From: an uncultured bacterium
Lineage (GTDB): Bacteria; Chloroflexota; UBA5177; JANWHV01
Direction of reading: 5' to 3'
Assembly: GCA_963827235.1 (NCBI GenBank)
Contig: CAWHAE010000012.1
Span: 128,001 to 192,000, forward strand
Length of the DNA: 64,000 nt
Below, in pieces: positions 10,006-23,104 of the stretch (its first letter is position 1; each line of letters opens with the position of its first letter). The notes beneath the pieces are model-generated. The model made no database searches, was not told the DNA's origin, and saw only the letters and a program-made list of their open reading frames with translations. The translations under genes were made by a program, and so were the position numbers.

Positions 10006-10359
10006 CTATCCTGCCGTGCGCGGGTTGTCGGGTGAAGGAACTCCAACCGATCGAAACACTTCGCGGGCGCCAACGGTCTCGTTCTCGTCGTACGGTCGGC
10101 CGGCTAGGACGACGAAGGTGGCACTGACGGGCACTATTCCCTCCGCGATTGCATAGTGCGCGAGCTGAGCGTAGTTCGTAGCGCCGGTCTTTCTGAATAA
10201 CCTCTCGCGGCAACTCGCTATCAGCTTCTCGGAAACATTCACCTCGGCGGCAATCTCAAGCTCAGACCTGCCCGCGGCAATCATGCGCAATACGCCGATC
10301 TCCCCACGTGTGAGGAGGGAATCGCATACGAGCATCCATCGTTCGTTGCACCGGTCCAT
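10006..10359 (-). CDS. Stand-alone LuxR/GerE-type HTH protein
   Basis: LTRGEIGVLRMIAAGRSELEIAAEVNVSEKLI...LFRKTGATNYAQLAHYAIAEGIV; CAGGAAC before ATG; no receiver domain. Confidence 0.75.
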   Translation of the reverse strand: MDRCNERWMLVCDSLLTRGEIGVLRMIAAGRSELEIAAEVNVSEKLIASCRERLFRKTGATNYAQLAHYAIAEGIVPVSATFVVLAGRPYDENETVGAREVFRSVGVPSPDNPRTAG

Positions 10360-10745: not shown

Positions 10746-12935
10746 CTAGCCGACATGCACGGCCTGCAGCGTGCGATAGGAGGTGGCGCGCACACTCTCC
10801 GGGAGCGGCACGTAGTTCTGCCCGCTCGCATAGCTCTGCCCGGCTGTGATCAGCCACTTGAAAAGGTCGATCAGCGCCTGACCTTTCACGACCTGCGCGT
10901 GGTGGGCGCGGACGAGGGCCCAGGAGTAGCCTGCAATCGGGTAGGCACCTGTTCCCTGGGCGTTGACGATGGAGAAGTGCATGGCCGTCACGCCCGGATG
11001 CTGATTCGCGGCCGCCAGGATACTGGCGGCGGACGGCGTGACGAACCGATGCGCCGCATTCTCCACCGCGGCCACAGGCAGCTTCGTGTCCTCGGCGAAC
11101 TTGAGCTCGGTGTAGCCAATGCCGCCGTTGACTGCAAGCACCTCGTTCGCCACCGCTGGATTCCCGGTTTCGCCGATCCCTACCGGCCAGTGCACCACCT
11201 TGCCGGCCCCGGCGTTCAAGGCAAAGTCGCTGCTGACGGCTGAGAGGTAGTCCGAGAAGATGTACGTCGTGCCGCTGCTGTCCGACCGGTGCACGGGCGC
11301 GATCGCAAGCGAGGGAAGGCTCACGCCGGGGTTGAGCGCGGCGATGGCCGGGTCGTTCCAACGCGTGATCTTCCCCAGAAAGATCGCGGCGAGGGTCGGC
11401 CCGTCAAAGCGCAGCACGGACTTCGTGGAGAAGTCGAGGTTGTAGGTGACGGCGACGCCGCCAAGCAAGATGGGCAGTTGCATGACGCCACTGCCGTTGC
11501 TGTTGGCCACGGCCTGCTCGGTGCTGTTCATGGGCACGTCGGTCATGCCGAAGTCGGTCTGATTATTCGTGAACTGCGTGATGCCGCCGCCCGAGCCGAC
11601 AGGGTCATAGGTGACGGCAACCGGGTTCGCCTGCGCGTATGCGGCCAGCGTGGTGGCGAGAAACGGCTGAGCGAATGTGGAGCCCGAGCCGATTAGCCGC
11701 ACGGACGCGGCTGTGGATCCGGCGTTGACGACGCCCACCGGTGTCACGACGATGGTCCGCGTCGCCGGGTGGGTGGTCCTGGCGCCGAACTCTACGGCGG
11801 ACACTCCCACCGCCAGTACCACGATGAGCGCGACAAGCGCAGCGACGATTTTGCCTCGAGTCGAGGAGAGCACGGTGCGCGGCTGCAAGATGCCGTCGAT
11901 CGCGGCCTTCATATCGGCCGCGCGCTGCCAGCGCTTCGCCGTGTCGTTCTGCAGGGCCTTGCCGACGATCTGCTCCGTTGCCTCGGAGACGGCCGGGTTG
12001 ATCGTGCGGACCGGCGGATACACAAACAGCGGCTCGACGCCCTGCGGATTCCGGCCGGTCAAGAGGTGGTGCATCGTGGCGCCCAGCGCGTAGACATCCG
12101 ACTGCGGCGTCTCGTGCCCGGTGAATTGCTCCCTCGGTGCGTAGCCGGGTGTGCCCATCGCCGTCGATGCTGCTCCCGTGCCTCCCTGCGTGCTTCCTAC
12201 CCGGAAGCGGTGAGATGCCACCCCGAAGTCGACGACCTGAACGCGGCCGGCGCTGTCGACCAGTATATTGGCGGGCTTGATGTCGCGGTGGATGACCTGC
12301 GGGTCGCGCGTCTCCAGGTAGTCGAGGACGGACAGGGCCTGACTGGCCCATTGCAGGACGTTGCGCTCGGGCAGCCGCTTGTCGGGCGCGGCGTCCGCCT
12401 TCTTCTGCAGGTCTTCACCGTCCACATAGTCCTGCACGATGAAGTAGCGGCCGGATTCGGTGGGAAAGTCGGTAATCTGTGGGACATTGGGATGTCGCAG
12501 GGCGGAGAGCGTCTTTCGCTCGCCGATGAACGCGTCCTCCGCTTCCTTGCGTTCATCATCGTTCGCGAAGTTGCGCAGCATCTCCTTGATCACGACCGGC
12601 TTGTCGTCGAGCCGCATATCGTGCGCGAGGAAGATGCTGCCCATGCCACCCTTACCCAGAGCCTTGTCGATCACATACCGGCCTGCCGAGAGGGTGACAC
12701 CAGGAGCGAGGGGCGTGGTGCCGATCTCGCGCGCCGACGGCGCGGCCGTCGTGGCGGGTACGGGCGGCGACGCGGAGGTAGTCTGCTCACCGCCGGTTTG
12801 GCGCGTCCGGGGAGGGTTCAGCTTGGAGCTGGTAGCTGGGTTCAGTCGCTGCGTGAGACTGATGCCGCAGGCGTCGCAATATCTGCTACCCGCCGGATTG
12901 GCAGCGCCACACTGCGGGCACATCACATCAGACAC
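10746..12935 (-). CDS. Zn-ribbon Hanks-type Ser/Thr kinase with one TM helix and a C-terminal PstS phosphate-binding domain
   Basis: CPQC...CDAC; LGKGGMG, VVIKE, HRDIKPAN, DFG, GTPGYAPRE; TM IVAALVALIVVLAVGV; PstS motifs GSGSTF, GSGGG, TDVP, WNDP, RSDSSGTT, YPI. Confidence 0.93.
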   Translation of the reverse strand: MSDVMCPQCGAANPAGSRYCDACGISLTQRLNPATSSKLNPPRTRQTGGEQTTSASPPVPATTAAPSAREIGTTPLAPGVTLSAGRYVIDKALGKGGMGSIFLAHDMRLDDKPVVIKEMLRNFANDDERKEAEDAFIGERKTLSALRHPNVPQITDFPTESGRYFIVQDYVDGEDLQKKADAAPDKRLPERNVLQWASQALSVLDYLETRDPQVIHRDIKPANILVDSAGRVQVVDFGVASHRFRVGSTQGGTGAASTAMGTPGYAPREQFTGHETPQSDVYALGATMHHLLTGRNPQGVEPLFVYPPVRTINPAVSEATEQIVGKALQNDTAKRWQRAADMKAAIDGILQPRTVLSSTRGKIVAALVALIVVLAVGVSAVEFGARTTHPATRTIVVTPVGVVNAGSTAASVRLIGSGSTFAQPFLATTLAAYAQANPVAVTYDPVGSGGGITQFTNNQTDFGMTDVPMNSTEQAVANSNGSGVMQLPILLGGVAVTYNLDFSTKSVLRFDGPTLAAIFLGKITRWNDPAIAALNPGVSLPSLAIAPVHRSDSSGTTYIFSDYLSAVSSDFALNAGAGKVVHWPVGIGETGNPAVANEVLAVNGGIGYTELKFAEDTKLPVAAVENAAHRFVTPSAASILAAANQHPGVTAMHFSIVNAQGTGAYPIAGYSWALVRAHHAQVVKGQALIDLFKWLITAGQSYASGQNYVPLPESVRATSYRTLQAVHVG

Positions 12936-13525: not shown

Positions 13526-16054
13526 CTACCGCACGGCGTAGAGGCGCACCAGGAAGCGCTTGAACGTGAGATGACTGAAAGCGATCGCGTCGGCTTCGAG
13601 CTCGCCGATCAGAATCGCCTTCTCTGCCTGCATCGCCCGGTGCCGCGCCAGGCGGTCGTCGAGCTCCTGCTGCTGCTGCGTGAAGCGCGCCTGCAGGGCC
13701 GTGCAGTGCCCGTCGAGCCTGTTCACGTCGTGCTCGTCGAGCAGCGCGGCGAGCCGCCGGTTCGCGGAGGCGTTGTCTTCCTGGCGCTCCTGCTGCAGGC
13801 GCTGCATCTCGATGGCGAATTGCGCCTTGATGCCGTCCATCTCCGCGACCCTGCGCTGCATCGCTGCCACGCGCTCACCTTCCAGTCGGGATCGCTTGTC
13901 CGCGACCTCGGCGCGAACCGCGGCTACCTCGGGCATGGAGAGCGCCGCCGGGGCCTGGGCGGTCGCGGCATTGAGCGTCACGCGCTTCCATTGCATCAGC
14001 GCCTGCAGATACTTGTCGCCGATGCCCGGGACTGCTTCGAGCCGGTTATAGGTCAGGTCGCGCGCCGTGCGCATGCCCAGAGAGGCCAGACGCCGGCAGA
14101 TGATGCCCGGCACGCCGGGCACATCCGCCTGCGCGAGGTCGTTCTTGAGCACGAAGTCCTGTTTGGACTGGTATTGCAGCACGAGCAAGCGCTTCTGCAA
14201 TTGCTCGGGCTCGCACTCCTCGATGCGGGCGATTTGCGCGTTCAGCCACTCCAGGTTGACGTCGACCTGGCTGATCTCGCGCTCGGCCATCTCTCTCACC
14301 TTCTCGAGACTCTCGTCGATACCCTGCAGCTGCTCGGCCAGGTTCCTGTTGATCTCCTCCATCGCCGGTGGCAACTTCTGCAGGTACTCCGTCCGCATTG
14401 CGGCCAGCCCGCCCAGCTCCGCCGCGCTCTCGGCAACGAGGGAGGTAAGCGCGGTCTCGGTGGCCGCAATCTCGCCGGTGAGCAGCCGTAGCGCGCGCTG
14501 TTCCTGCGCCAGCCGTTGCCGTGTCTCCCGTCCCCTGGTCAGCGCGTCGTCCGCAAGATAGGCATGGAGAGCTACGGCCACGTTCACCAGGACGGCGAGC
14601 GGCAGCAGAGCCAGCCACCTGACCGGTGCGCTGATCGCCGGGACGGGCAGCACGAAAGCCAGCACGCTGGCCACCAGCACGCTGAGCAGGGCCAGCAGCT
14701 GGAACGGCGCGAACCGGGCCCCGAAGCGGGCCGAGCGCTTCGGCAGGGCCGGCGCGCTCACGAGCGGCGCCGCTTCCGCGCCCACACCCGGCGTCGACCC
14801 GGTTGCATCGGAGCGGGCCGCGGCCCGCTCCGGCTGCGTCATGACAGACACGGCCTGGCCCCCGGTGGTTTGCAGCCAGGAGCTGCCGAGCAGTGGCGGC
14901 GACGGCTCCTCGCGGCCCGGCACGACCGGTGTGACCGCGTCCTCCGATTCCGCGGCGGCTTCGGCGGTGCGCGGAATGACGGCCGGTCCCGTATCCGCCA
15001 GGTAAGCAGCGCTTTCCAGCCAGGAGCTGTCGCCCACCTGTGCCGGCGTTCGCTCCTCCACCGGCGGCACCTCGTCCGGTTTGGGCGCGGCCGGCTGGGC
15101 TGCCGGCTGAGCGGCCGGGGCCCTCACCTCGACGTGATCCTTGAGCCAATCCGAACCGATCGGCTTGCCGTGTTTCTCGGCGAGCGACGGCAGCTCCAGC
15201 GGTGGCCGCGCGAGCAGCCCGATAACCTCGCGCGCCAGGTCCGCCGTCTCGCCGGAGCCGTGATCGAGGAGCAGGCGCATCGTGTCCGAGGCGTCCGGCT
15301 GCTTCAGGTCGTCGCTGCGCAGGAGGAGACTCTCCTCCCCGGCTCGCACCGCCGTCCACAGCCGCGGATCTTCGCTGAAGGCGACCAGCGAGAGATAGAT
15401 TACCCAGGTCGAGAAACGGTCGAGGCGCCCGTCGAAGTGCGCGTTGGTCCGTGCCGGGTGCTGATAGTTGGGATCGCCCAGCTCGTTGCTGGCGGCGAAG
15501 CGGCCCTTGAAGGGCGGCACGTACATGCCGTCGTAGTCGATTAGCTTGAAATCCTCGCCCACGACCAGCACGTTGCCGTGCTGCAGGTCGCCATGGGCGA
15601 CGCCGACGCCTTCCAGGTCGCCGACCAGGCGGATCCATCGTGCCGCCAGGAGCTTGAGCAGGTGAGGATTCGCGCGATGCTCCTTGACGAACTTGTCCAG
15701 CGAATCGCCGTCCACCCACTCCATCTTGAGAATGGGAAACGGCTTTCCCTGCACGCGGATCCCATTCTCCTGGTATTCGAAGCCCACGGTGTAGCGGAGG
15801 TGAGCGTGCTCCAGGTAGGTGCTGATGCCCGCGTAGCGGTCCTTCTGGTCCTGCGTGTTGCGTGTGAAGCACTTGACCGCCCAGTACTGCGATCCGCACT
15901 TGACCCGGTAGACGCTGGCGAAATTGCCCGAGACGGCCTGCGGCAGCCCGAGCCGGTTCAGGGTAGGCTGGCCCTCGGCTAGCTCCGCGTCCAGGAGATT
16001 GCTCCGCGGGTGCTGTATCGCCTCGTTGTAGTCTTGTGGCTCTGGCCAGCGCAT
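13526..16054 (-). CDS. Membrane Ser/Thr kinase-like protein with TM hairpin, coiled coil and HhH motifs (TerY-P/YegI-like kinase)
   Basis: SGNFASVY, WAVK, HGDLQHGN, IDYDG; Pro/Ala linker; two hydrophobic helices; VPGVPG and VPGIGDKYLQALMQWK HhH repeats. Confidence 0.85.
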   Translation of the reverse strand: MRWPEPQDYNEAIQHPRSNLLDAELAEGQPTLNRLGLPQAVSGNFASVYRVKCGSQYWAVKCFTRNTQDQKDRYAGISTYLEHAHLRYTVGFEYQENGIRVQGKPFPILKMEWVDGDSLDKFVKEHRANPHLLKLLAARWIRLVGDLEGVGVAHGDLQHGNVLVVGEDFKLIDYDGMYVPPFKGRFAASNELGDPNYQHPARTNAHFDGRLDRFSTWVIYLSLVAFSEDPRLWTAVRAGEESLLLRSDDLKQPDASDTMRLLLDHGSGETADLAREVIGLLARPPLELPSLAEKHGKPIGSDWLKDHVEVRAPAAQPAAQPAAPKPDEVPPVEERTPAQVGDSSWLESAAYLADTGPAVIPRTAEAAAESEDAVTPVVPGREEPSPPLLGSSWLQTTGGQAVSVMTQPERAAARSDATGSTPGVGAEAAPLVSAPALPKRSARFGARFAPFQLLALLSVLVASVLAFVLPVPAISAPVRWLALLPLAVLVNVAVALHAYLADDALTRGRETRQRLAQEQRALRLLTGEIAATETALTSLVAESAAELGGLAAMRTEYLQKLPPAMEEINRNLAEQLQGIDESLEKVREMAEREISQVDVNLEWLNAQIARIEECEPEQLQKRLLVLQYQSKQDFVLKNDLAQADVPGVPGIICRRLASLGMRTARDLTYNRLEAVPGIGDKYLQALMQWKRVTLNAATAQAPAALSMPEVAAVRAEVADKRSRLEGERVAAMQRRVAEMDGIKAQFAIEMQRLQQERQEDNASANRRLAALLDEHDVNRLDGHCTALQARFTQQQQELDDRLARHRAMQAEKAILIGELEADAIAFSHLTFKRFLVRLYAVR

Positions 16055-16226
16055 TTCAGGGACGCTCTCTCAACTGGCTTCCCTCGCAGGATCCAGCCGG
16101 CTGTTTCCGGTCACCGCGGATCGCCGGCCCGCCGGCTGGTGTTCAGCCCGCGGAGCACTGCCGCGCGACCGTCCCGCGTGGCGGCAAGCCCGGCGCATGC
16201 GGCAAACACGGCGGCGTGCCACTGCC

Positions 16227-16967
16227 TTACAGCCTTGCCCGGATGCGCAGCAGTGTGACGTCGTCGTTCTTCAGGTTTCCTGTCGAGCGCAGCTCCTGCA
16301 CAAGCTGTGCGAAAGACTGCCCGCCGGTGCCGTCGAGGTGCAGGTCGAGCAATGCTTCCCACGGGCGCGTCTTTGCTTCCGTGGCGCGCAGGAACCAGCA
16401 GCCCAGGGCGTCGGTCATCAGGAAGAAGGTGTCGCGCTCCTTCCACCGGCCCGAGCTGCGCACCAGGGCGCTGTCCCCGCCGTTACTCGAGAGAAGCGCC
16501 GGCCGGCTGGTGAAGTCGGAGGATCGCTTGAGCGGAAACGCGTTGAGCAACCGGCCGGCACGCAGCTGGAAGAGGCAGCTGTCTCCCGCTGCTACGGCAA
16601 ACCACTTCAGCAGGGCGCCGTCCCTGAACAGTCTCAGTCCGAGAAGCGTTGAAAAGGCGCCGAGTCGTGCTTTCTCCTCCGCGTACCAGGGCAGCGGCCT
16701 ACCGCCGACCTGCGTTCTCCACTCTTGTCTCAGCGGCTCCAGGTCCTTGTCCTCGAGCCGGTCGTCGATCTTGCCTTCGCCATAGGCGTTGACCAGCATC
16801 TCTGCCCAGAGTCCGGCATAGGAGGTCTCAGTGGCGCCGTCCGCAATGGCGAAGCGATAGGCACGGTGCTTTGCGGACGCCGGGTCCGGCTTATAGAAGG
16901 CGTCTTCGTAGTCGGCATCCGAGTTGCCCGCTTTTGGCAGGCAGAAGGCCTGTTGCTCTACGTGCAC
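16227..16967 (-). CDS. PP2C-like protein phosphatase (YegK/TerY-P type)
   Basis: YEDAF, AIADGA, AGDSCL, LMTDA and NDDVT metal-binding motifs. Confidence 0.88.
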   Translation of the reverse strand: MHVEQQAFCLPKAGNSDADYEDAFYKPDPASAKHRAYRFAIADGATETSYAGLWAEMLVNAYGEGKIDDRLEDKDLEPLRQEWRTQVGGRPLPWYAEEKARLGAFSTLLGLRLFRDGALLKWFAVAAGDSCLFQLRAGRLLNAFPLKRSSDFTSRPALLSSNGGDSALVRSSGRWKERDTFFLMTDALGCWFLRATEAKTRPWEALLDLHLDGTGGQSFAQLVQELRSTGNLKNDDVTLLRIRARL

Positions 16968-17021
16968 GAGATATGGCTCACGATCTGAATCATCCTCCAG
17001 CCGCTGGTACGTGCTCTGGGC

Positions 17022-17888
17022 TTAACGCAGATTGCTCGGTCTGGTACCGATGTCGAGGAAGCGGATCACGGAAACCATGTCGGCGTTGAAGACGAAGCCG
17101 CGGGCCTCGGCGGCCACCACGTATTCTTCCTGCCGGGCAACATCCAGCATGTATTCCGGCAGCGGGCTGGAGATGCGATACAGCAGGTGTGCGTACTGAT
17201 CCGGCAGGGTCTGCTCGTCGCTGGGAAACTCGATCGGAGTGGCTCGATTGGTCGAGATGTGTGCGTTGAACAGCAGGGCATTGCCGTCGCCAGTAGCGAG
17301 ATCCTTCAGGGCCTGCGCGGAGGCAGTGGGATCGCCGTCGGTCGACTCGCCGTCCGTGATGTTGATCACTATAGGCGGGAAGCTGGACTGGTGCTCGGTC
17401 ACCCAGGGTTCCAGCAGAGCTGTCGCCTGCTGGAACGCGCGGCGCATCGGCGTGCCGCCGCTGGCCACGGGCTCAAACCAGATGGGGAACTTGACCGTCT
17501 GCTCCATGATGCCGCCGGCGCCGTCGTCCATCTTCTTCGTGCGCTCTTCGATGCGCACGGGCGCGTTCGCCACGTCGCCGATCGGCACCAGATCGCTGCC
17601 GGAAAGCGGCCCGCCGAAAGCCGGACCCACCTGGGCGCCGTAGCCGATCACGCCGACCGAGTAGTAGTCGCGCACGCCGTCGGACTTGGCGCACTTGATG
17701 ACTAGGTTCTGCAACAGGCGGTTGATCGCGTCGGCCACTCCCTGGGCCTTGGTCCGCCGGTTCGCGAAGGGCACGCGCGGCGCGTCCGGCTGGCCGGCAT
17801 CCAGTGATTCGGCCATGGAGCCCGACTGATCGATGAGAAACAGGAAGCACGATGGATTGAGACGGTTGATCTCGGCGGTGTACGTCAC
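17022..17888 (-). CDS. von Willebrand factor A domain protein (TerY/YegL-like)
   Basis: Intact MIDAS: DQSGS, GTPM, ITDGES; GGAGGA RBS before GTG. Confidence 0.9.
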   Translation of the reverse strand: MTYTAEINRLNPSCFLFLIDQSGSMAESLDAGQPDAPRVPFANRRTKAQGVADAINRLLQNLVIKCAKSDGVRDYYSVGVIGYGAQVGPAFGGPLSGSDLVPIGDVANAPVRIEERTKKMDDGAGGIMEQTVKFPIWFEPVASGGTPMRRAFQQATALLEPWVTEHQSSFPPIVINITDGESTDGDPTASAQALKDLATGDGNALLFNAHISTNRATPIEFPSDEQTLPDQYAHLLYRISSPLPEYMLDVARQEEYVVAAEARGFVFNADMVSVIRFLDIGTRPSNLR

Positions 17889-18293: not shown

Positions 18294-20582
18294 ATGGCGA
18301 GTCTAGACTCCAACGAATATCCGGCGGACGGAGCCCTGGTCGGCGACGACGGGCGTTCCCGCGGACGCCTGATCGCGGTGCCCTGGCACCGTCTGTTGCT
18401 GGCGGCGATCCTGGCGTTCTCGGGCTGGCTCGACTTCGCGCAGCTCGACCGCTACGGCTACGGCAACTCATACTACGCGGCGGCAGTGCGCAGCATGATG
18501 CAAAGCTGGCACAACTTCTTCTTCGCCTCGTTCGATCCGGGCGGTTTCGTGACCATCGACAAGCCGCCGGTCGGCTTCTGGTTCCAGGTGCTCAGCGCCA
18601 AGATATTCGGCTATAGCGGTGTCAGCCTGCTGCTGCCCTCGGCGCTGGCAGGCGTCCTATCCGTCTGGCTCCTCTACTACCTGGTGAATCGACGCTTCGG
18701 ACACGGTGCCGGCCTGCTGGCGGCGCTGGCGCTCGCCGTGACTCCGGTCGCCGTGGCCAGCAATCGCAGCAACATCATCGACAGCATTCTGGTGCTCTTC
18801 CTGCTTCTCGGCGCCTGGGCGGCGATCACGGCCGCGGAGCGCGGCAGCCTGGGACGGCTGTTGCTCTGCGCGCTCTTCGTCGGTATCGGTTTCAACGTCA
18901 AGATGCTCGAGGCCTACCTTGTGGTGCCTGCCTTTGGCGTGACCTATCTCCTGGGCGCGCACCGCTCCTGGTGGACGCGTATCCGGCATCTGCTGCTTGC
19001 CACGGTCGTGCTGCTTGCCGTGTCGCTGTCCTGGGCCGTGGCCGTAGACCTTACACCTGCCGGCCAGCGGCCGTGGGTGGATTCCACCAGCACCAATTCC
19101 GAGCTGGATCTCGCCCTTGGCTATAACGGGCTCGACCGTCTCCTGGGCATGCACGGCATGGGTGGCCGCGGCGGCCCCAGTGGGAGCTTCGACTTCCAGC
19201 GCCCGGCGCTTTCGGACAGCGGAGTTCGCCTTTCCCGTATCAATCCTGCGCTCGGCCTGGGTGTTCAGTCCGGCGGCGCATCGCCGTCCCAACCGGGCGC
19301 CGGCTCGTTCGACGGCCAGCTTGTTCCGCGGGGCTCGGACTCGTCCCGGTTCGGCGGCGAATTCTCCCGCAGCTTCAATCGAGCTTTCACAGGCGGTCAG
19401 CGCCCCGGCAACGGCGGCGGCATGTTCGACAACGGTACGGCAGGCCCGTTCCGCCTGCTCGGTCAGGCGCTGGGCGGCCAGGCCGGCTGGCTGCTTCCCC
19501 TGGCGGTGCTTGGTCTCCTGGCGGCCGCCAGCAGGCGCCGGATCCGTCTGCCCCTGGATGACCGGCAGCAGGGCATCCTGCTCTGGGGAATCTGGCTGCT
19601 CACCGCGGGCGCTTTCTTCAGCGTGGCCGGCTTCTTCCACAGCTACTACCTGGTGACCCTTGCCCCGGCGGTTGCCGCCCTGGCCGGTATCGGCGGCGCG
19701 GTGCTCTGGCGAGACTACGTGCGCCGCGGGTGGCGAGGCTGGCTGCTGCCGCTCGTGCTGCTGGCCACGGCCGCGGTGCAGGTATCGCTCCTGCAGCCGT
19801 ATGGTGACTGGAGCCGGTGGCTGGACCCGCTCATCCTTTGCGCGGTGGTCGGCGCCTCCGCGGTGCTGGTCGCCGGCCGCATGCGCCGTCCGGCGCGCCT
19901 GCGCCGAGCCGTGCGCCTCTGGACTCCGCTGGCCACGGTCGTGGGCCTGCTGGTACTGCTTGTCGCTCCGGCTGCCTGGTCCTACTACACGACGACGCAG
20001 GGCGGCGGCGGCATGACGCCGGTTGCCGGGCCCTCCGTGGGCGGTTTCGGCTCCGCCGGTGGCCGTGGCGGATTCGGCGGCGGCCTCGGCGGCGATCGGG
20101 GAGGCAGCGACAGTGAGCTGCTCACCTACCTGGAGCAGCACCAGGGAAGCACCAAATACCTGGTAGCCGTGCAGAACTCCAACAGCGCAGCGTCGTATGT
20201 GATCCAGACCGGCAAGCCGGTCATGTCGCTGGGCGGCTTCAGCGGCAGCGATCCTGTCTTGACCTTGAGTGAGCTTCAGCAGCTAGTGAAAGAGAACGTC
20301 GTGCGCTACTTCCTTGGCGTCGGAGGCTTTAGCGGCAACAACGACATCGGGCAGTGGGTGCAGAGCGCCTGCACGGCCGTGACGCTGAGCGGTAGCAGCA
20401 GCTCGTCCCAGCCGTCGGGCACGTCCGCCGGCGGCAGCTCCGGTGCCTCGCTGGGCAACGCGGGCGGAGCCACCCAGCCCGGACCCGGCGGTCCTGGAGG
20501 CGGTGCCGGCGGGCTCAGCTCCGGTGGCGGATTCGGCGGCTCCGGCGGCCAGCTCTATGACTGCGCGCACGCGGTGTCCTGA
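18294..20582 (+). CDS. GT39/ArnT-PMT family membrane glycosyltransferase (YkcB-like), copy 1
   Basis: GNSYYAAAVRSMMQSWHNFFFASFDPGGFVTIDKPP, GFNVKML, GYNGL, SLGGFSGSDP, C-terminal LYDC. Confidence 0.9.
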   Translation: MASLDSNEYPADGALVGDDGRSRGRLIAVPWHRLLLAAILAFSGWLDFAQLDRYGYGNSYYAAAVRSMMQSWHNFFFASFDPGGFVTIDKPPVGFWFQVLSAKIFGYSGVSLLLPSALAGVLSVWLLYYLVNRRFGHGAGLLAALALAVTPVAVASNRSNIIDSILVLFLLLGAWAAITAAERGSLGRLLLCALFVGIGFNVKMLEAYLVVPAFGVTYLLGAHRSWWTRIRHLLLATVVLLAVSLSWAVAVDLTPAGQRPWVDSTSTNSELDLALGYNGLDRLLGMHGMGGRGGPSGSFDFQRPALSDSGVRLSRINPALGLGVQSGGASPSQPGAGSFDGQLVPRGSDSSRFGGEFSRSFNRAFTGGQRPGNGGGMFDNGTAGPFRLLGQALGGQAGWLLPLAVLGLLAAASRRRIRLPLDDRQQGILLWGIWLLTAGAFFSVAGFFHSYYLVTLAPAVAALAGIGGAVLWRDYVRRGWRGWLLPLVLLATAAVQVSLLQPYGDWSRWLDPLILCAVVGASAVLVAGRMRRPARLRRAVRLWTPLATVVGLLVLLVAPAAWSYYTTTQGGGGMTPVAGPSVGGFGSAGGRGGFGGGLGGDRGGSDSELLTYLEQHQGSTKYLVAVQNSNSAASYVIQTGKPVMSLGGFSGSDPVLTLSELQQLVKENVVRYFLGVGGFSGNNDIGQWVQSACTAVTLSGSSSSSQPSGTSAGGSSGASLGNAGGATQPGPGGPGGGAGGLSSGGGFGGSGGQLYDCAHAVS

Positions 20583-23104
20583 TGGCAAGCATTATCGTCG
20601 ATGAGGTCCCTGCCGCGGCAGGACAAGCAGAGCGCCTGGAGGCAGTGTCGCAACGGCGCGTCCTGCCTCTCTGGTGGCCCCGCGTGGCGCTGGCGCCGAT
20701 TCTGGTACTGGCAGGCGTACTGGAGTTCGCGGGTCTGACCGATGAGGGCTACGCGAACTCCTACTACGCGGCCGCCGTCAAGAGCATGCTGACCAGCTGG
20801 CACAACTTCTTCTTTGCCTCGTTCGACTCGGGCGGCTTTGTCAGCGTGGACAAGCCGCCCCTCGGCCTGTGGGTCGAGGTCGCGAGCGCCAAGCTCTTCG
20901 GTTTCAGCAGTTTCAGCATCCTGGCACCCGAGGCGCTGGCCGGCGTGCTCTCGGTGGGCCTGCTGTACCTGCTCGTGGCCCGTCCGTTTGGGCCGGTCGC
21001 CGGGCTCGCCGCCGCGCTGGCCCTGGCCATCACACCGATCACCGTGATCACGGACCGGAACAACACCATCGACAGCCTGCTGATCCTCACCATGTTGCTG
21101 GCATGCCGTGCCGGGATCGCGGCGGCGAACAGCGGGCGGTTGCGGTACCTCGCCCTGGCGGCGGCGCTGGTGGGACTCGGCTTCAACATCAAGATGATGC
21201 AGGCCTATCTCGTGGTGCCCGGCTTGGCGCTCATGTATTTGCTGGGAGCGCCGCGCTCCTGGAAGGCTCGCCTCGGTCACCTGGCCTGCGCGCTGCTCGT
21301 CCTGATCGTCGTCTCGCTGGCCTGGCTGGTGGCAGTAGACATGACGCCGGCATCGGCGCGCCCGTTCGTGAGCGATAGCGGTACCAACTCGGAGCTCAGC
21401 CTCGCCCTCGGCTACAACGGATTGGGACGCGTCACGCAGGCTCTGTTCTCGGGCCTCTCCGGCGTACACGTCTTCGGCATCACCATCGACCTCAACGTCG
21501 TGCCGGCCTTCGCGCCGGAGATCGGCAACCCGGGTCTCAACCGATTGGTGACGCCGGTCATCGCCGAGCAGGCAAGCTGGTTCTTGCCGCTGGCCCTTGG
21601 CGGCCTGCTCGCCGCCTTGATCGGGCTGCGCTGGCGTCTGCCGCTCGACGAGCGCGGCCAATCCGTCGTGCTGTGGGCCGGCTGGCTGGCTGCGGCCTGC
21701 ATCTTCTTCAGCACCGGTCGCTTCTTTCACCTGTACTACCTGGTGATGCTGGCGCCGCCCGTGGCGGCGATGGCAGGGATCGGCGTGGCATCGCTGTGGC
21801 GCTTGTTCGCCCGCGGAGCCTTCGGCGGACGAGGGATCAGCCGCCTGCTCGGTTGGCTGCTGCCGGCCGCGCTGCTGGGTACCGCGTACTTCCAGCTCAC
21901 CCTCGCGCGGGCCTACCCAGATTGGGGAAGCTGGCTGCAGCCGTTGCTCATCGGGGGCTCGATTCTTGCCGCGTTGGCGTTGGCATTGGCGCTGTTGCGC
22001 GTGTACGTGGAGGTCGCGCCGGGCGTCGTGCTGGGAGCCACGCGGGCCTGGGCCGGCACCGCGGTTGCCGTCGGCCTGCTGGCCCTGGTAGTGGCGCCTG
22101 CGTCCTGGTCGTCGCAGGCGGTGGCGGCCGGGCAGGGCAGCGCGTGGCTGCCCCAGGTCGGTCCCGGCGGTGGAAGCCCGGGCGGTGGCTTCGGTGGCGG
22201 CGGATTTCAGGGTGGGCGAAACGGTTTCGGCCAGGGCGCCGGCAGCCAGAACGGCGGCTTCGGCGGCCCCGGCCAGAGCGGGAACGGCTCAACCGGCGGC
22301 GGAGCCGGGGTGCCGGGCCAGGCCGCCAGCAGCCCAGGCAGCGCATCTGGCGGACCCGGGCAGCTTACGGGCGGTTCGAGCAGCGGATCCGGCGGTAATG
22401 GTCAGCCAACGGGAGGCGCCGGGGCTGCCGGCGGCAGCTCGGTCCGGCAGCCGGCGGGCAGTGCTACCGGCAGTTCCGGGTGGTCTAGCCGGGGCGGCAG
22501 CAGCTCCTCGAGCGGGCAGCAAGGCGGATCGCGGCAGCAGTCCGCCGCCGGCGGTGGTTTCGGTGGCGGCTTTGGCGGTGGACGCGGCGGAGGCGGCAGT
22601 GCATTCGCCGGCGGCACCATGACGTTTGCCGGAAACCAGATACCAACGCTGGACTCGAAGCTGGTGGACTATCTGTTGGCAAACCAGCACGGCGCCAAGT
22701 TCCTCGTGGCCACTGCCACCTCGTCCTATGCCAGCCTGTTCATTCTGCAGACGAACCAGCCGGCAATGGCGCTCGGCGGTTATCAGGGCTGGGATCGCAT
22801 TCTCACGCCTGCCACGCTCGCCCGGGCGGTAGCCAGCAATACCGTGCGCTTCTTCTACATCTCAGCCGAGCGCGGCGCCGGACAGTCCTCCGGGACCGGC
22901 GGCGCACAGAGCACTGCGAGCAGCCGCCAGCTTCCCGGCGACAGCGATGCGACCGCCGATCTCACGCAATGGGTGGTAGCGCATTGCAAAGCCGTATCGT
23001 CCAGCACCTACCAGGGCACGTCGAGCACTGCCGCTGGAGGAGGCAGGGACTTCGGCGGAGGCGGACTGCAGCTCTACAGTTGTGCGAGCCTCGTGAAGCA
23101 GTAG
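20582..23104 (+). CDS. GT39/ArnT-PMT family membrane glycosyltransferase (YkcB-like), copy 2
   Basis: Same motif set (NSYYAAAVKSM...DKPP, GFNIKM, GYNGL); TGATG overlap with copy 1; long Gly/Ser insert. Confidence 0.9.
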   Translation: MASIIVDEVPAAAGQAERLEAVSQRRVLPLWWPRVALAPILVLAGVLEFAGLTDEGYANSYYAAAVKSMLTSWHNFFFASFDSGGFVSVDKPPLGLWVEVASAKLFGFSSFSILAPEALAGVLSVGLLYLLVARPFGPVAGLAAALALAITPITVITDRNNTIDSLLILTMLLACRAGIAAANSGRLRYLALAAALVGLGFNIKMMQAYLVVPGLALMYLLGAPRSWKARLGHLACALLVLIVVSLAWLVAVDMTPASARPFVSDSGTNSELSLALGYNGLGRVTQALFSGLSGVHVFGITIDLNVVPAFAPEIGNPGLNRLVTPVIAEQASWFLPLALGGLLAALIGLRWRLPLDERGQSVVLWAGWLAAACIFFSTGRFFHLYYLVMLAPPVAAMAGIGVASLWRLFARGAFGGRGISRLLGWLLPAALLGTAYFQLTLARAYPDWGSWLQPLLIGGSILAALALALALLRVYVEVAPGVVLGATRAWAGTAVAVGLLALVVAPASWSSQAVAAGQGSAWLPQVGPGGGSPGGGFGGGGFQGGRNGFGQGAGSQNGGFGGPGQSGNGSTGGGAGVPGQAASSPGSASGGPGQLTGGSSSGSGGNGQPTGGAGAAGGSSVRQPAGSATGSSGWSSRGGSSSSSGQQGGSRQQSAAGGGFGGGFGGGRGGGGSAFAGGTMTFAGNQIPTLDSKLVDYLLANQHGAKFLVATATSSYASLFILQTNQPAMALGGYQGWDRILTPATLARAVASNTVRFFYISAERGAGQSSGTGGAQSTASSRQLPGDSDATADLTQWVVAHCKAVSSSTYQGTSSTAAGGGRDFGGGGLQLYSCASLVKQ

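Follow-up and report, generated by a model that had tools for sequence, protein, structure and literature searches.

We analyzed a 64,000-nucleotide stretch of DNA from an uncultured Chloroflexota bacterium (positions 128001-192000 of contig C12 in an 8.0-Mb source assembly), referred to here as the window, and focused on one of its genes, which encodes a receptor-type Ser/Thr kinase with a C-terminal PstS (phosphate-binding protein) domain (Table 1). The gene starts with GTG, and its reading frame contains no internal stop. This start agrees with the relatives, all of which begin five residues ahead of a CPQCG motif, while the database copy of the window protein (P0002) starts four residues later and is 725 aa long. 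A reading of the window made earlier from the sequence alone (the sequence-only reading) had described a single open reading frame (ORF) for a zinc ribbon, a Pro/Thr linker, a Hanks kinase, a transmembrane helix and PstS, and the Pfam, NCBIfam and hydropathy results bear this layout out.

Table 1. Features of the kinase-PstS gene, in window coordinates
Feature	Window positions	Strand	Evidence
Whole gene, receptor-type Ser/Thr kinase with PstS ectodomain, 729 aa	10746..12935	(-)	ORF list and translation; stop codon at 10746-10748
Zinc ribbon, N-terminal, cytoplasmic, residues 6-25 (CPQC...CDAC)	12861..12920	(-)	Pfam Zn_Ribbon_1
Pro/Thr/Ala/Ser-rich linker, residues 26-84	12684..12860	(-)	Translation and alignment A1
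Hanks-type kinase domain, residues 85-355	11871..12683	(-)	Pfam Pkinase, motifs, conservation, alignment A1
Single transmembrane helix, residues ~362-383	11787..11852	(-)	Hydropathy scan, alignment A1
Outside linker between helix and PstS fold, ~28 residues (384-411)	11703..11786	(-)	Translation
PstS domain, residues 412-729	10749..11702	(-)	TIGR00975, E. coli PstS alignment, AlphaFold/Foldseek, conservation

The zinc ribbon lies just above its family threshold (26.4 bits against a cut-off of 25) and is kept in the six full-length close relatives (clade A, below) of alignment A1, in which the linker that follows it varies in both length and sequence. A single hydrophobic segment is present in the protein, with its maximum at residues 363-381 (mean Kyte-Doolittle value 3.03) and Arg/Lys residues just before it, and one such segment also separates kinase and PstS in 45 of 46 fused relatives. 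Because the basic residues stand on the kinase side of this helix, the kinase is placed inside the cell and PstS outside. A conserved juxtamembrane stretch, LQPxT.LSSTRGK, precedes the helix in alignment A1. An AlphaFold model of the full-length protein, built from a 10-row alignment, was unusable, with a mean predicted local distance difference test score (pLDDT) of 39.3.

The PstS and kinase domains

The extracellular half is a PstS domain by every measure applied. It scored 318.7 bits against the NCBIfam PstS equivalog TIGR00975 (cut-off 205), with residues 415-721 covering profile positions 2-309 of 315, and 128.5 bits against Pfam PBP_like_2 (residues 407-688, cut-off 27). The ligand motifs picked out in the sequence-only reading were all located (GSTF at 418, GSGGG at 447, (GM)TD at 463-466, and RSDSSGT at 550), and its claim that the phosphate-ligating positions are retained proved correct. 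In the HMMER alignment from the PDB search, residues T420, F421, S448, D466, R550, D552, S554, G555, and T556 are identical to T10, F11, S38, D56, R135, D137, S139, G140, and T141 of E. coli PstS, and the alignment has no gaps around the site. We take the list of ligating residues (T10, F11, S38, D56, R135, S139, G140, and T141, plus D137) to be that of the crystal-structure literature; the PDB matches include entries with titles for D56 and D137 mutants of PstS.

The predicted structure that had been proposed as a check agrees with these assignments. An AlphaFold model of residues 392-729 reached a pLDDT of 94.6 and a predicted template modeling score of 0.93, with low pLDDT in its first 20 residues, and displays the two-lobed PstS fold. 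The best Foldseek match is 8ods, a phosphate-bound PstS on which the model superposes with template modeling scores of 0.88/0.95 and a root-mean-square deviation (rmsd) of 1.8 Å; the E. coli PstS entries matched at 1.7-2.0 Å and phosphate-bound structures at 1.7-2.1 Å. Collectively, the alignment and the model show a predicted complete two-lobed PstS fold outside the cell in which every phosphate-ligating residue is kept.

The site is also conserved in the relatives. Across 36 fused proteins, S38, R135, S139, and G140 (E. coli numbering) are invariant, T141 is found in 35, D137 in 32, and D56 in 31, the other 5 having Glu; position 10 is Thr in 23 and Ser in 13. All 10 clade-A members match phosphate-binding PstS at S38, D56, R135, D137, S139, G140, and T141 and carry Thr or Ser at position 10. 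The second fused group (clade B, below) is less uniform in the domain alignment, with D56 in 75% and D137 in 72%.

The intracellular half matched Pfam Pkinase over residues 87-298 with 115.4 bits (cut-off 31.7) and contains the expected motifs: GKGGMG at 94, VVIK at 114-117, HRDIKPAN at 216, DFG at 236, and GTPGYAPRE at 261. The catalytic residues K117, D218, N223, and D236-F-G are in place, and the activation loop reads S/T-x-A-M-G-T-P-G-Y-A-P-R-E. Both the score and the catalytic residues are thus those of a Hanks-type kinase, and the enzyme looks active as judged from these residues. Conservation of the catalytic set among the 36 fused proteins is similarly high (Lys in 33, catalytic Asp in 33, Asn in 35, and the Asp and Gly of DFG in 34 and 36, respectively).

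The two halves belong to one genuine gene. GC content is 0.657 in both, and GC at third codon positions (GC3) is 0.82 and 0.86 (0.84 for the whole gene), without any compositional seam between the halves. When the search was limited to long proteins, it returned nine further clusters (90% identity) with kinase and PstS (P0003-P0011; JGI, ENA, and Logan), which align over their full length to the window protein at 64-72% identity, juxtamembrane segment and helix included. One of them, P0010, was seen on six contigs; it has six members, five of which reach the full length of 732 aa. Among sequencing runs, two DNA runs contain small shares (0.11 and 0.05); the contigs placed from them are short pieces and conserved motifs from other organisms, and none of these public contigs spans the kinase/PstS junction. 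A chimeric junction had been named as the outcome that would undo the sequence-only reading; the nine clusters with the full design and the absence of a seam decided this question in favor of the gene.

Family, origins and distribution

A kinase N-terminal to PstS was found in 47 of the 266 proteins collected, the two entries of the window protein included, and Pfam confirmed the combination of Pkinase and PBP_like_2 in 35 of 60 proteins scanned. A FastTree phylogeny of 174 PstS domains placed the fused proteins into two separate groups. Clade A (11 rows, support 99) unites the window protein with its close relatives and branches from within the free PstS proteins, and clade B contains 42 rows, 36 of them fused. 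An IQ-TREE reconstruction of 67 rows also kept clade A together (support 99), within a 20-row set that holds 13 free PstS proteins (support 99). A single clade of all fused rows was rejected by the approximately unbiased test (log-likelihood difference 132.9, p 0.0019, LG+G4), a test that, in the tool's own trials under LG+G4, rejected 5 of 71 true clades.

The kinase halves were compared as well. Over residues 5-420, the window kinase is 56-62% identical to paralogues of 876-902 aa that are encoded by the source genome itself and by each of the four same-genus genomes, and that combine the same zinc ribbon-kinase-transmembrane scaffold with a Peripla_BP_6/ANF_receptor ectodomain (L290:2583-5240 on the reverse strand; L088-L091). 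The same genus thus carries one kinase scaffold with either a PstS or a Peripla_BP_6 ectodomain, a case of modular sensor swapping. Identity of the kinase half to the Peripla_BP_6 paralogue of its own genome is 56%, versus 30% to the kinase of the fusion in Zavarzinella. These relationships agree with two origins, and the PstS module was therefore recruited separately onto different receptor-kinase scaffolds. By the domain phylogenies and the kinase comparisons, the kinase-PstS design arose at least twice.

The fusion is patchily distributed. Among the 21 genomes of its own class, it was found in this genome only. We also searched 151 genomes of Gemmatales (the order of Zavarzinella formosa in the NCBI taxonomy) with the PstS model, fetching reading frames of at least 781 aa and leaving out those of 570-651 aa. 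Besides Zavarzinella, 20 matches lay in frames of at least 781 aa, and 18 of these are kinase-PstS proteins, in 16 genomes; with Zavarzinella counted, the fusion is present in 17 of the 151 genomes, 15 of which also have a separate full-length PstS match. The earlier guess that similar fusions exist has therefore held up, given nine clade-A clusters and the clade-B proteins of these 17 genomes. In public databases the fused proteins are annotated as "phosphate ABC transporter substrate-binding protein," the name of the PstS transport protein.

Other routes to relatives yielded less. Nine loci with long matches from Luteimonas, Thermomonas, Thermoanaerobaculia, and Kryptoniota (L023, L030, L031, L040, L048, L075, L079, L085, and L086) were discarded, as ORF calling resolved them into tandem or single pstS genes, and only L065 (Zavarzinella) among the long-match loci is a fusion. 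A whole-protein search from Zavarzinella across its phylum, in which five candidates per genome were scored, returned the fusion in 1 of 201 and was uninformative. Scanning genome contigs with alignment A1 retrieved general kinases only, and scanning metagenomes with the kinase patterns of that alignment retrieved mainly Peripla_BP_6 paralogues and one close relative. This relative (L100:7986-9092) is 70% identical over the kinase and has a stop right behind the kinase domain (368 aa); truncation of the gene, a variant made of the kinase alone, or a break in the assembly could each account for this.

PstS domains were also encountered in other layouts: with long N-terminal extensions that have no kinase match (937 and 622 aa), joined to a pyridine-nucleotide disulfide oxidoreductase, or repeated two or three times within a single protein (L270:5234-8047 and L271:6432-8300, both of Gemmatales, and P0014, P0018, P0021, P0125, P0127, P0129, P0130, and P0204).

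Pst genes and gene neighborhood

The assembly contains exactly two PstS matches, the fused gene and a 370-aa free PstS. The latter heads the operon pstS-pstC-pstA-pstB-phoU on contig C10, which holds the only pstC/pstA/pstB/phoU set in the genome. The fused domain and this free PstS are 43% identical and have all nine site residues in common. As the sequence-only reading stated, no pstCAB genes are nearby: no Pst family was detected in the 18 large ORFs between positions 110 and 32689 of the window, and none of the 15 pstC-model matches of the genome falls within the window. Since a full pstSCAB-phoU operon is present on another contig, the fused copy is an additional one.

Divergent from that operon lies a gene for a 274-aa OmpR/PhoB-like regulator (L289:11381-12205, forward strand, contig C10 of the source genome G000), which scores 114 bits against the PhoB model (cut-off 296). 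The acidic pair and the phospho-accepting Asp are absent from its receiver half, as are the conserved Thr and Lys, and some input other than a histidine kinase may control the regulator. It is conceivable that it is a Ser/Thr-phosphorylated target of the fused kinase. A specific association between regulator and fusion was rejected, because the orthologues adjoining pstS show equal degeneration in G003 and G004, two genomes of the same genus that lack the fusion.

Around the kinase-PstS gene itself, scans for promoters, terminators, and Rfam families gave nothing useful. About 390 bases downstream is a stand-alone 117-aa ORF of the LuxR/GerE helix-turn-helix type (window positions 10006-10359, reverse strand), whose GC3 of 0.69 is below that of its neighbors. 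Upstream on the same strand is an unrelated-looking trio (13526-17888): a vWA-like protein with a DxSxS motif (17022-17888; VWA, E 2e-4, below cut-off), a PP2C-like protein (16227-16967; PP2C_2, E 2e-4, below cut-off), and an 842-aa protein (13526-16054) that runs from a kinase-like N terminus through a hydrophobic middle part into a long coiled-coil tail and whose matches to Bud32 (E 4e-5) and SLATT_1 (E 1.5e-3) are likewise below cut-offs. We take this trio to resemble the vWA, PP2C, and kinase triad "TerY-P." Farther along, on the forward strand (18294-23104), two large PMT_2 plus YkcB_C glycosyltransferase genes (762 and 840 aa) adjoin with a one-base overlap.

Neighbors were surveyed for 15 of the 18 Gemmatales fusion genes at the fetched loci. 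In two related loci, a gene for an extracytoplasmic function (ECF)-type sigma factor lies directly upstream of the fusion (L273:14241-14885 and L284:4556-5200); it ends 27 bases before the kinase-PstS gene and is itself preceded by a gene for a large TPR protein. ECF groups tied to Ser/Thr kinases are described in the available text of PMC7826278. Elsewhere, a purple acid phosphatase is encoded two genes away (L276), a sigma-54 activator is encoded downstream (L283), and one fusion has a fused pstC/pstA permease gene and a free pstS as its immediate neighbors (L274), the only one of the 15 surveyed fusions that pst genes adjoin. The aspartate-less PhoB-like regulator, the product of the LuxR-type gene, and the ECF sigma factors of some Gemmatales loci are no more than conceivable candidates for substrates of these kinases.

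Phosphate sensing, its alternatives and known systems

We consider it probable, with moderate confidence, that the window protein is a receptor Ser/Thr kinase that reads outside phosphate directly, beside the Pst-PhoU route. In the mechanism we propose, a single-pass receptor kinase would have a functional, phosphate-specific PstS domain as its outside sensor, and orthophosphate would close the two lobes of this ectodomain. The resulting change in the shape or pairing of the ectodomain would be relayed by the conserved juxtamembrane segment and the helix and would alter autophosphorylation of the activation loop, hence phosphorylation of cytoplasmic targets. The cell would thereby gain a direct reading of outside phosphate beside, not instead of, PstSCAB-PhoU. 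The sequence-only reading had proposed a one-component sensor unlike PhoR-PhoU-Pst signaling; its layout is confirmed, and in this genome the protein adds to the Pst-PhoU system, not replacing it. Its preference for sensing over transport is favored indirectly by the position of the fused copy as an extra to pstSCAB-phoU, by the free PstS kept in 15 of the 17 fusion-bearing Gemmatales genomes, by the at least two origins, and by a scaffold that elsewhere carries another binding domain.

A transport-coupled rival, which we regard as a minor but real possibility, is that the tethered PstS has kept its docking on PstCA, where it would hand over phosphate or compete with the free PstS, and that the kinase sits at the working transporter or reports on it, reading traffic rather than free phosphate alone. 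Such a protein would be, in covalent form, the equivalent of an operon that pairs a kinase gene with pstS. In M. tuberculosis, pknD is given as a predicted operon partner of pstS2 in the part of PMC3322341 available to us. The intact site, the PstS score above the equivalog cut-off, and the single fusion beside permease genes fit this rival. The location of this genome's pst operon on another contig and the scarcity of adjoining pst genes (1 of 15 surveyed fusions) speak against it.

The docking face bears on the same question. The E. coli PstSCAB cryo-electron microscopy paper lists, in its available text, 18 PstS residues that touch PstA or PstC (PMC12976172). Free PstS proteins share a majority residue (≥50%) in 166 alignment columns, 10 of which are such contacts. 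Residues lost in both fused clades include 4 of these 10 contacts (N32, Q34, T49, and Q201) versus 3 of the 156 other columns (Fisher p 2e-4, with thresholds chosen post hoc). All four are changed in 10/10 clade-A members, and the free PstS of the same genome keeps N32, Q34, K175, and Y198, where the fused domain has Thr, Asp, Thr, and Phe. Across the twelve free clades taken together, contacts make up 15 of the 206 lost columns, versus 5 of 20 in clade A. These substitutions hint, if weakly, that the fused domain may no longer dock on PstCA. Counted on the side of docking are the contacts S38, S39 (Gly in most PstS), R134 (His), and P169, which are kept in clade A, and the variation of free clades at the same positions, by which change in the fusions need not mean lost docking.

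Several observations weigh against direct sensing. The docking-face thresholds were set after the data had been seen. The free clade nearest to clade A (F2) keeps N32 in only 2/9, Q34 in 0/9, T49 in 1/9, and Q201 in 0/9, and free clades F8 and F12 are likewise without several of these contact residues; since some free clades also lose them, a transport-competent fused domain is compatible with the changes. A domain tethered to its helix by a linker of ~28 residues could reach PstCA. The fusion is dispensable in its own class, because it was found in only 1 of 21 genomes, the other 20 of which (unpublished G018 included) are 58-97% complete. Of the two fusion-bearing Gemmatales genomes without a separate full-length PstS match, G300 shows the fused copy alone, and G303 has, besides its fusion, no more than fragments of a free PstS. 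No neighbor was common to the surveyed fusion loci (15 of the 18 Gemmatales genes included), and none pointed to an output; no RNA run was listed with the kinase-PstS gene. Finally, we infer ligand binding, kinase activity, regulation, and targets alike.

Direct sensing of phosphate could be taken further, in a speculative version to which we give little credence. A true one-component phosphate receptor would have evolved at least twice, with a non-docking PstS that gates a kinase controlling phosphate-starvation genes through Ser/Thr phosphorylation of a transcription factor, such as the PhoB-like regulator in this genus or the adjacent ECF sigma factors in some Gemmatales. If true, such a Pho pathway would depend neither on PhoR nor on traffic through the transporter.

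The ligand might also be another oxyanion or phosphorylated compound (arsenate, phosphite, pyrophosphate, or an organophosphate) instead of orthophosphate. PstS-like folds with different or lost ligands exist, and the clade-B site varies at D56 and D137; the seven site residues identical in all 10 clade-A members, with Thr or Ser at position 10, the TIGR00975 score above cut-off, and the close superposition on phosphate-bound structures (1.7-2.1 Å) make this quite improbable. The chance that the gene arose by chimeric assembly, or by an accidental fusion of recent date that is now decaying, is negligible: the relative in L100 stops just past the kinase domain and no public contig that could be placed spans the junction, but nine other clusters at 64-72% identity share the full design with helix and juxtamembrane segment, five of the six P0010 members on six contigs are full length, composition shows no seam, and catalytic and ligand residues are conserved.

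Compared with characterized systems, the protein that we favor as a phosphate receptor combines familiar elements in a new arrangement. In the classical PstSCAB-PhoU-PhoR/PhoB system, the signal reaches a histidine kinase by way of the transporter and PhoU. The binding fold and, on our reading, the nutrient are the same here, and the genome keeps pstSCAB-phoU, but the window protein wires the binding domain straight to a Ser/Thr kinase through one helix. The Peripla_BP_6/ANF_receptor kinases of its own lineage share the kinase scaffold and an outside binding-protein fold; theirs is of type I, the amino-acid type, and each of the four same-genus genomes encodes them, whereas within the class the PstS version was found in this genome only. 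They resemble animal natriuretic-peptide receptors and the BvgS-type sensor kinases with Venus-flytrap domains. PASTA kinases (PknB/Stk1/PrkC) are likewise single-pass receptor Hanks kinases, and PASTA/Stk1 (NF033483) is the best NCBIfam kinase match; at 184.2 bits, the window protein falls well short of the cut-off of 450 for that family, and with no PASTA family among its Pfam matches it is not a member.

A close genetic parallel is pstS2-pknD of M. tuberculosis, in which a transmembrane Hanks kinase is genetically tied to a PstS as its predicted operon partner (PMC3322341); the reference list of PMC4996455 cites a study of PstS or PknD deficiency. Those are two proteins, and PknD has its own beta-propeller (NHL-type) ectodomain as sensor (PMC6213207, available text), unlike the window protein, in which PstS itself is the ectodomain. 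The NCBIfam PknD model gave 59.6 bits on the window protein (cut-off 839), and no propeller family was among its Pfam matches. By analogy, the fusion is a hint, as a Rosetta-stone style clue, that the PknD/PstS2-type pair may work together. In GlnH-GlnX-PknG, described in the available part of PMC8050422 as the only characterized binding-protein-stimulated Ser/Thr kinase, an outside solute-binding protein also governs a Hanks kinase; it consists of three proteins with an amino-acid ligand and a soluble kinase, unlike this single polypeptide with a phosphate-type domain. The same text describes PstS-CtpL of Pseudomonas aeruginosa, in which phosphate-loaded PstS is a signal input besides being a transport part. 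There a free PstS of the transport operon binds a chemoreceptor, whereas the window gene is a second, dedicated PstS copy fused to a kinase. Binding domain and kinase share one uninterrupted ORF, and the window protein therefore differs from the CtpL-PstS and GlnH-GlnX-PknG systems, which are made of separate polypeptides.

The 2018 Hanks-kinase review names only PASTA and propeller sensors in the part of its text available to us (PMC6213207). Our literature searches, with subscription journals outside their coverage, found no characterized kinase-PstS fusion, in line with the earlier statement that no characterized example was known. Both the parts of the kinase-PstS protein and the logic by which they are joined are known, and the protein is misnamed in the databases.

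How bacteria gauge outside phosphate is still disputed, and the textbook route is indirect, by way of a working PstSCAB and PhoU. If our reading is true, a kinase with a high-affinity phosphate-binding ectodomain would be a direct receptor, with one domain, one known ligand, and one enzymatic readout. The independent appearance of the design in two distant lineages argues that it is useful, and the fusion offers a clue to the long-noted kinase/pstS neighborhood of mycobacteria. Annotation as a transport protein hides this signaling family and inflates the counts of transport genes.

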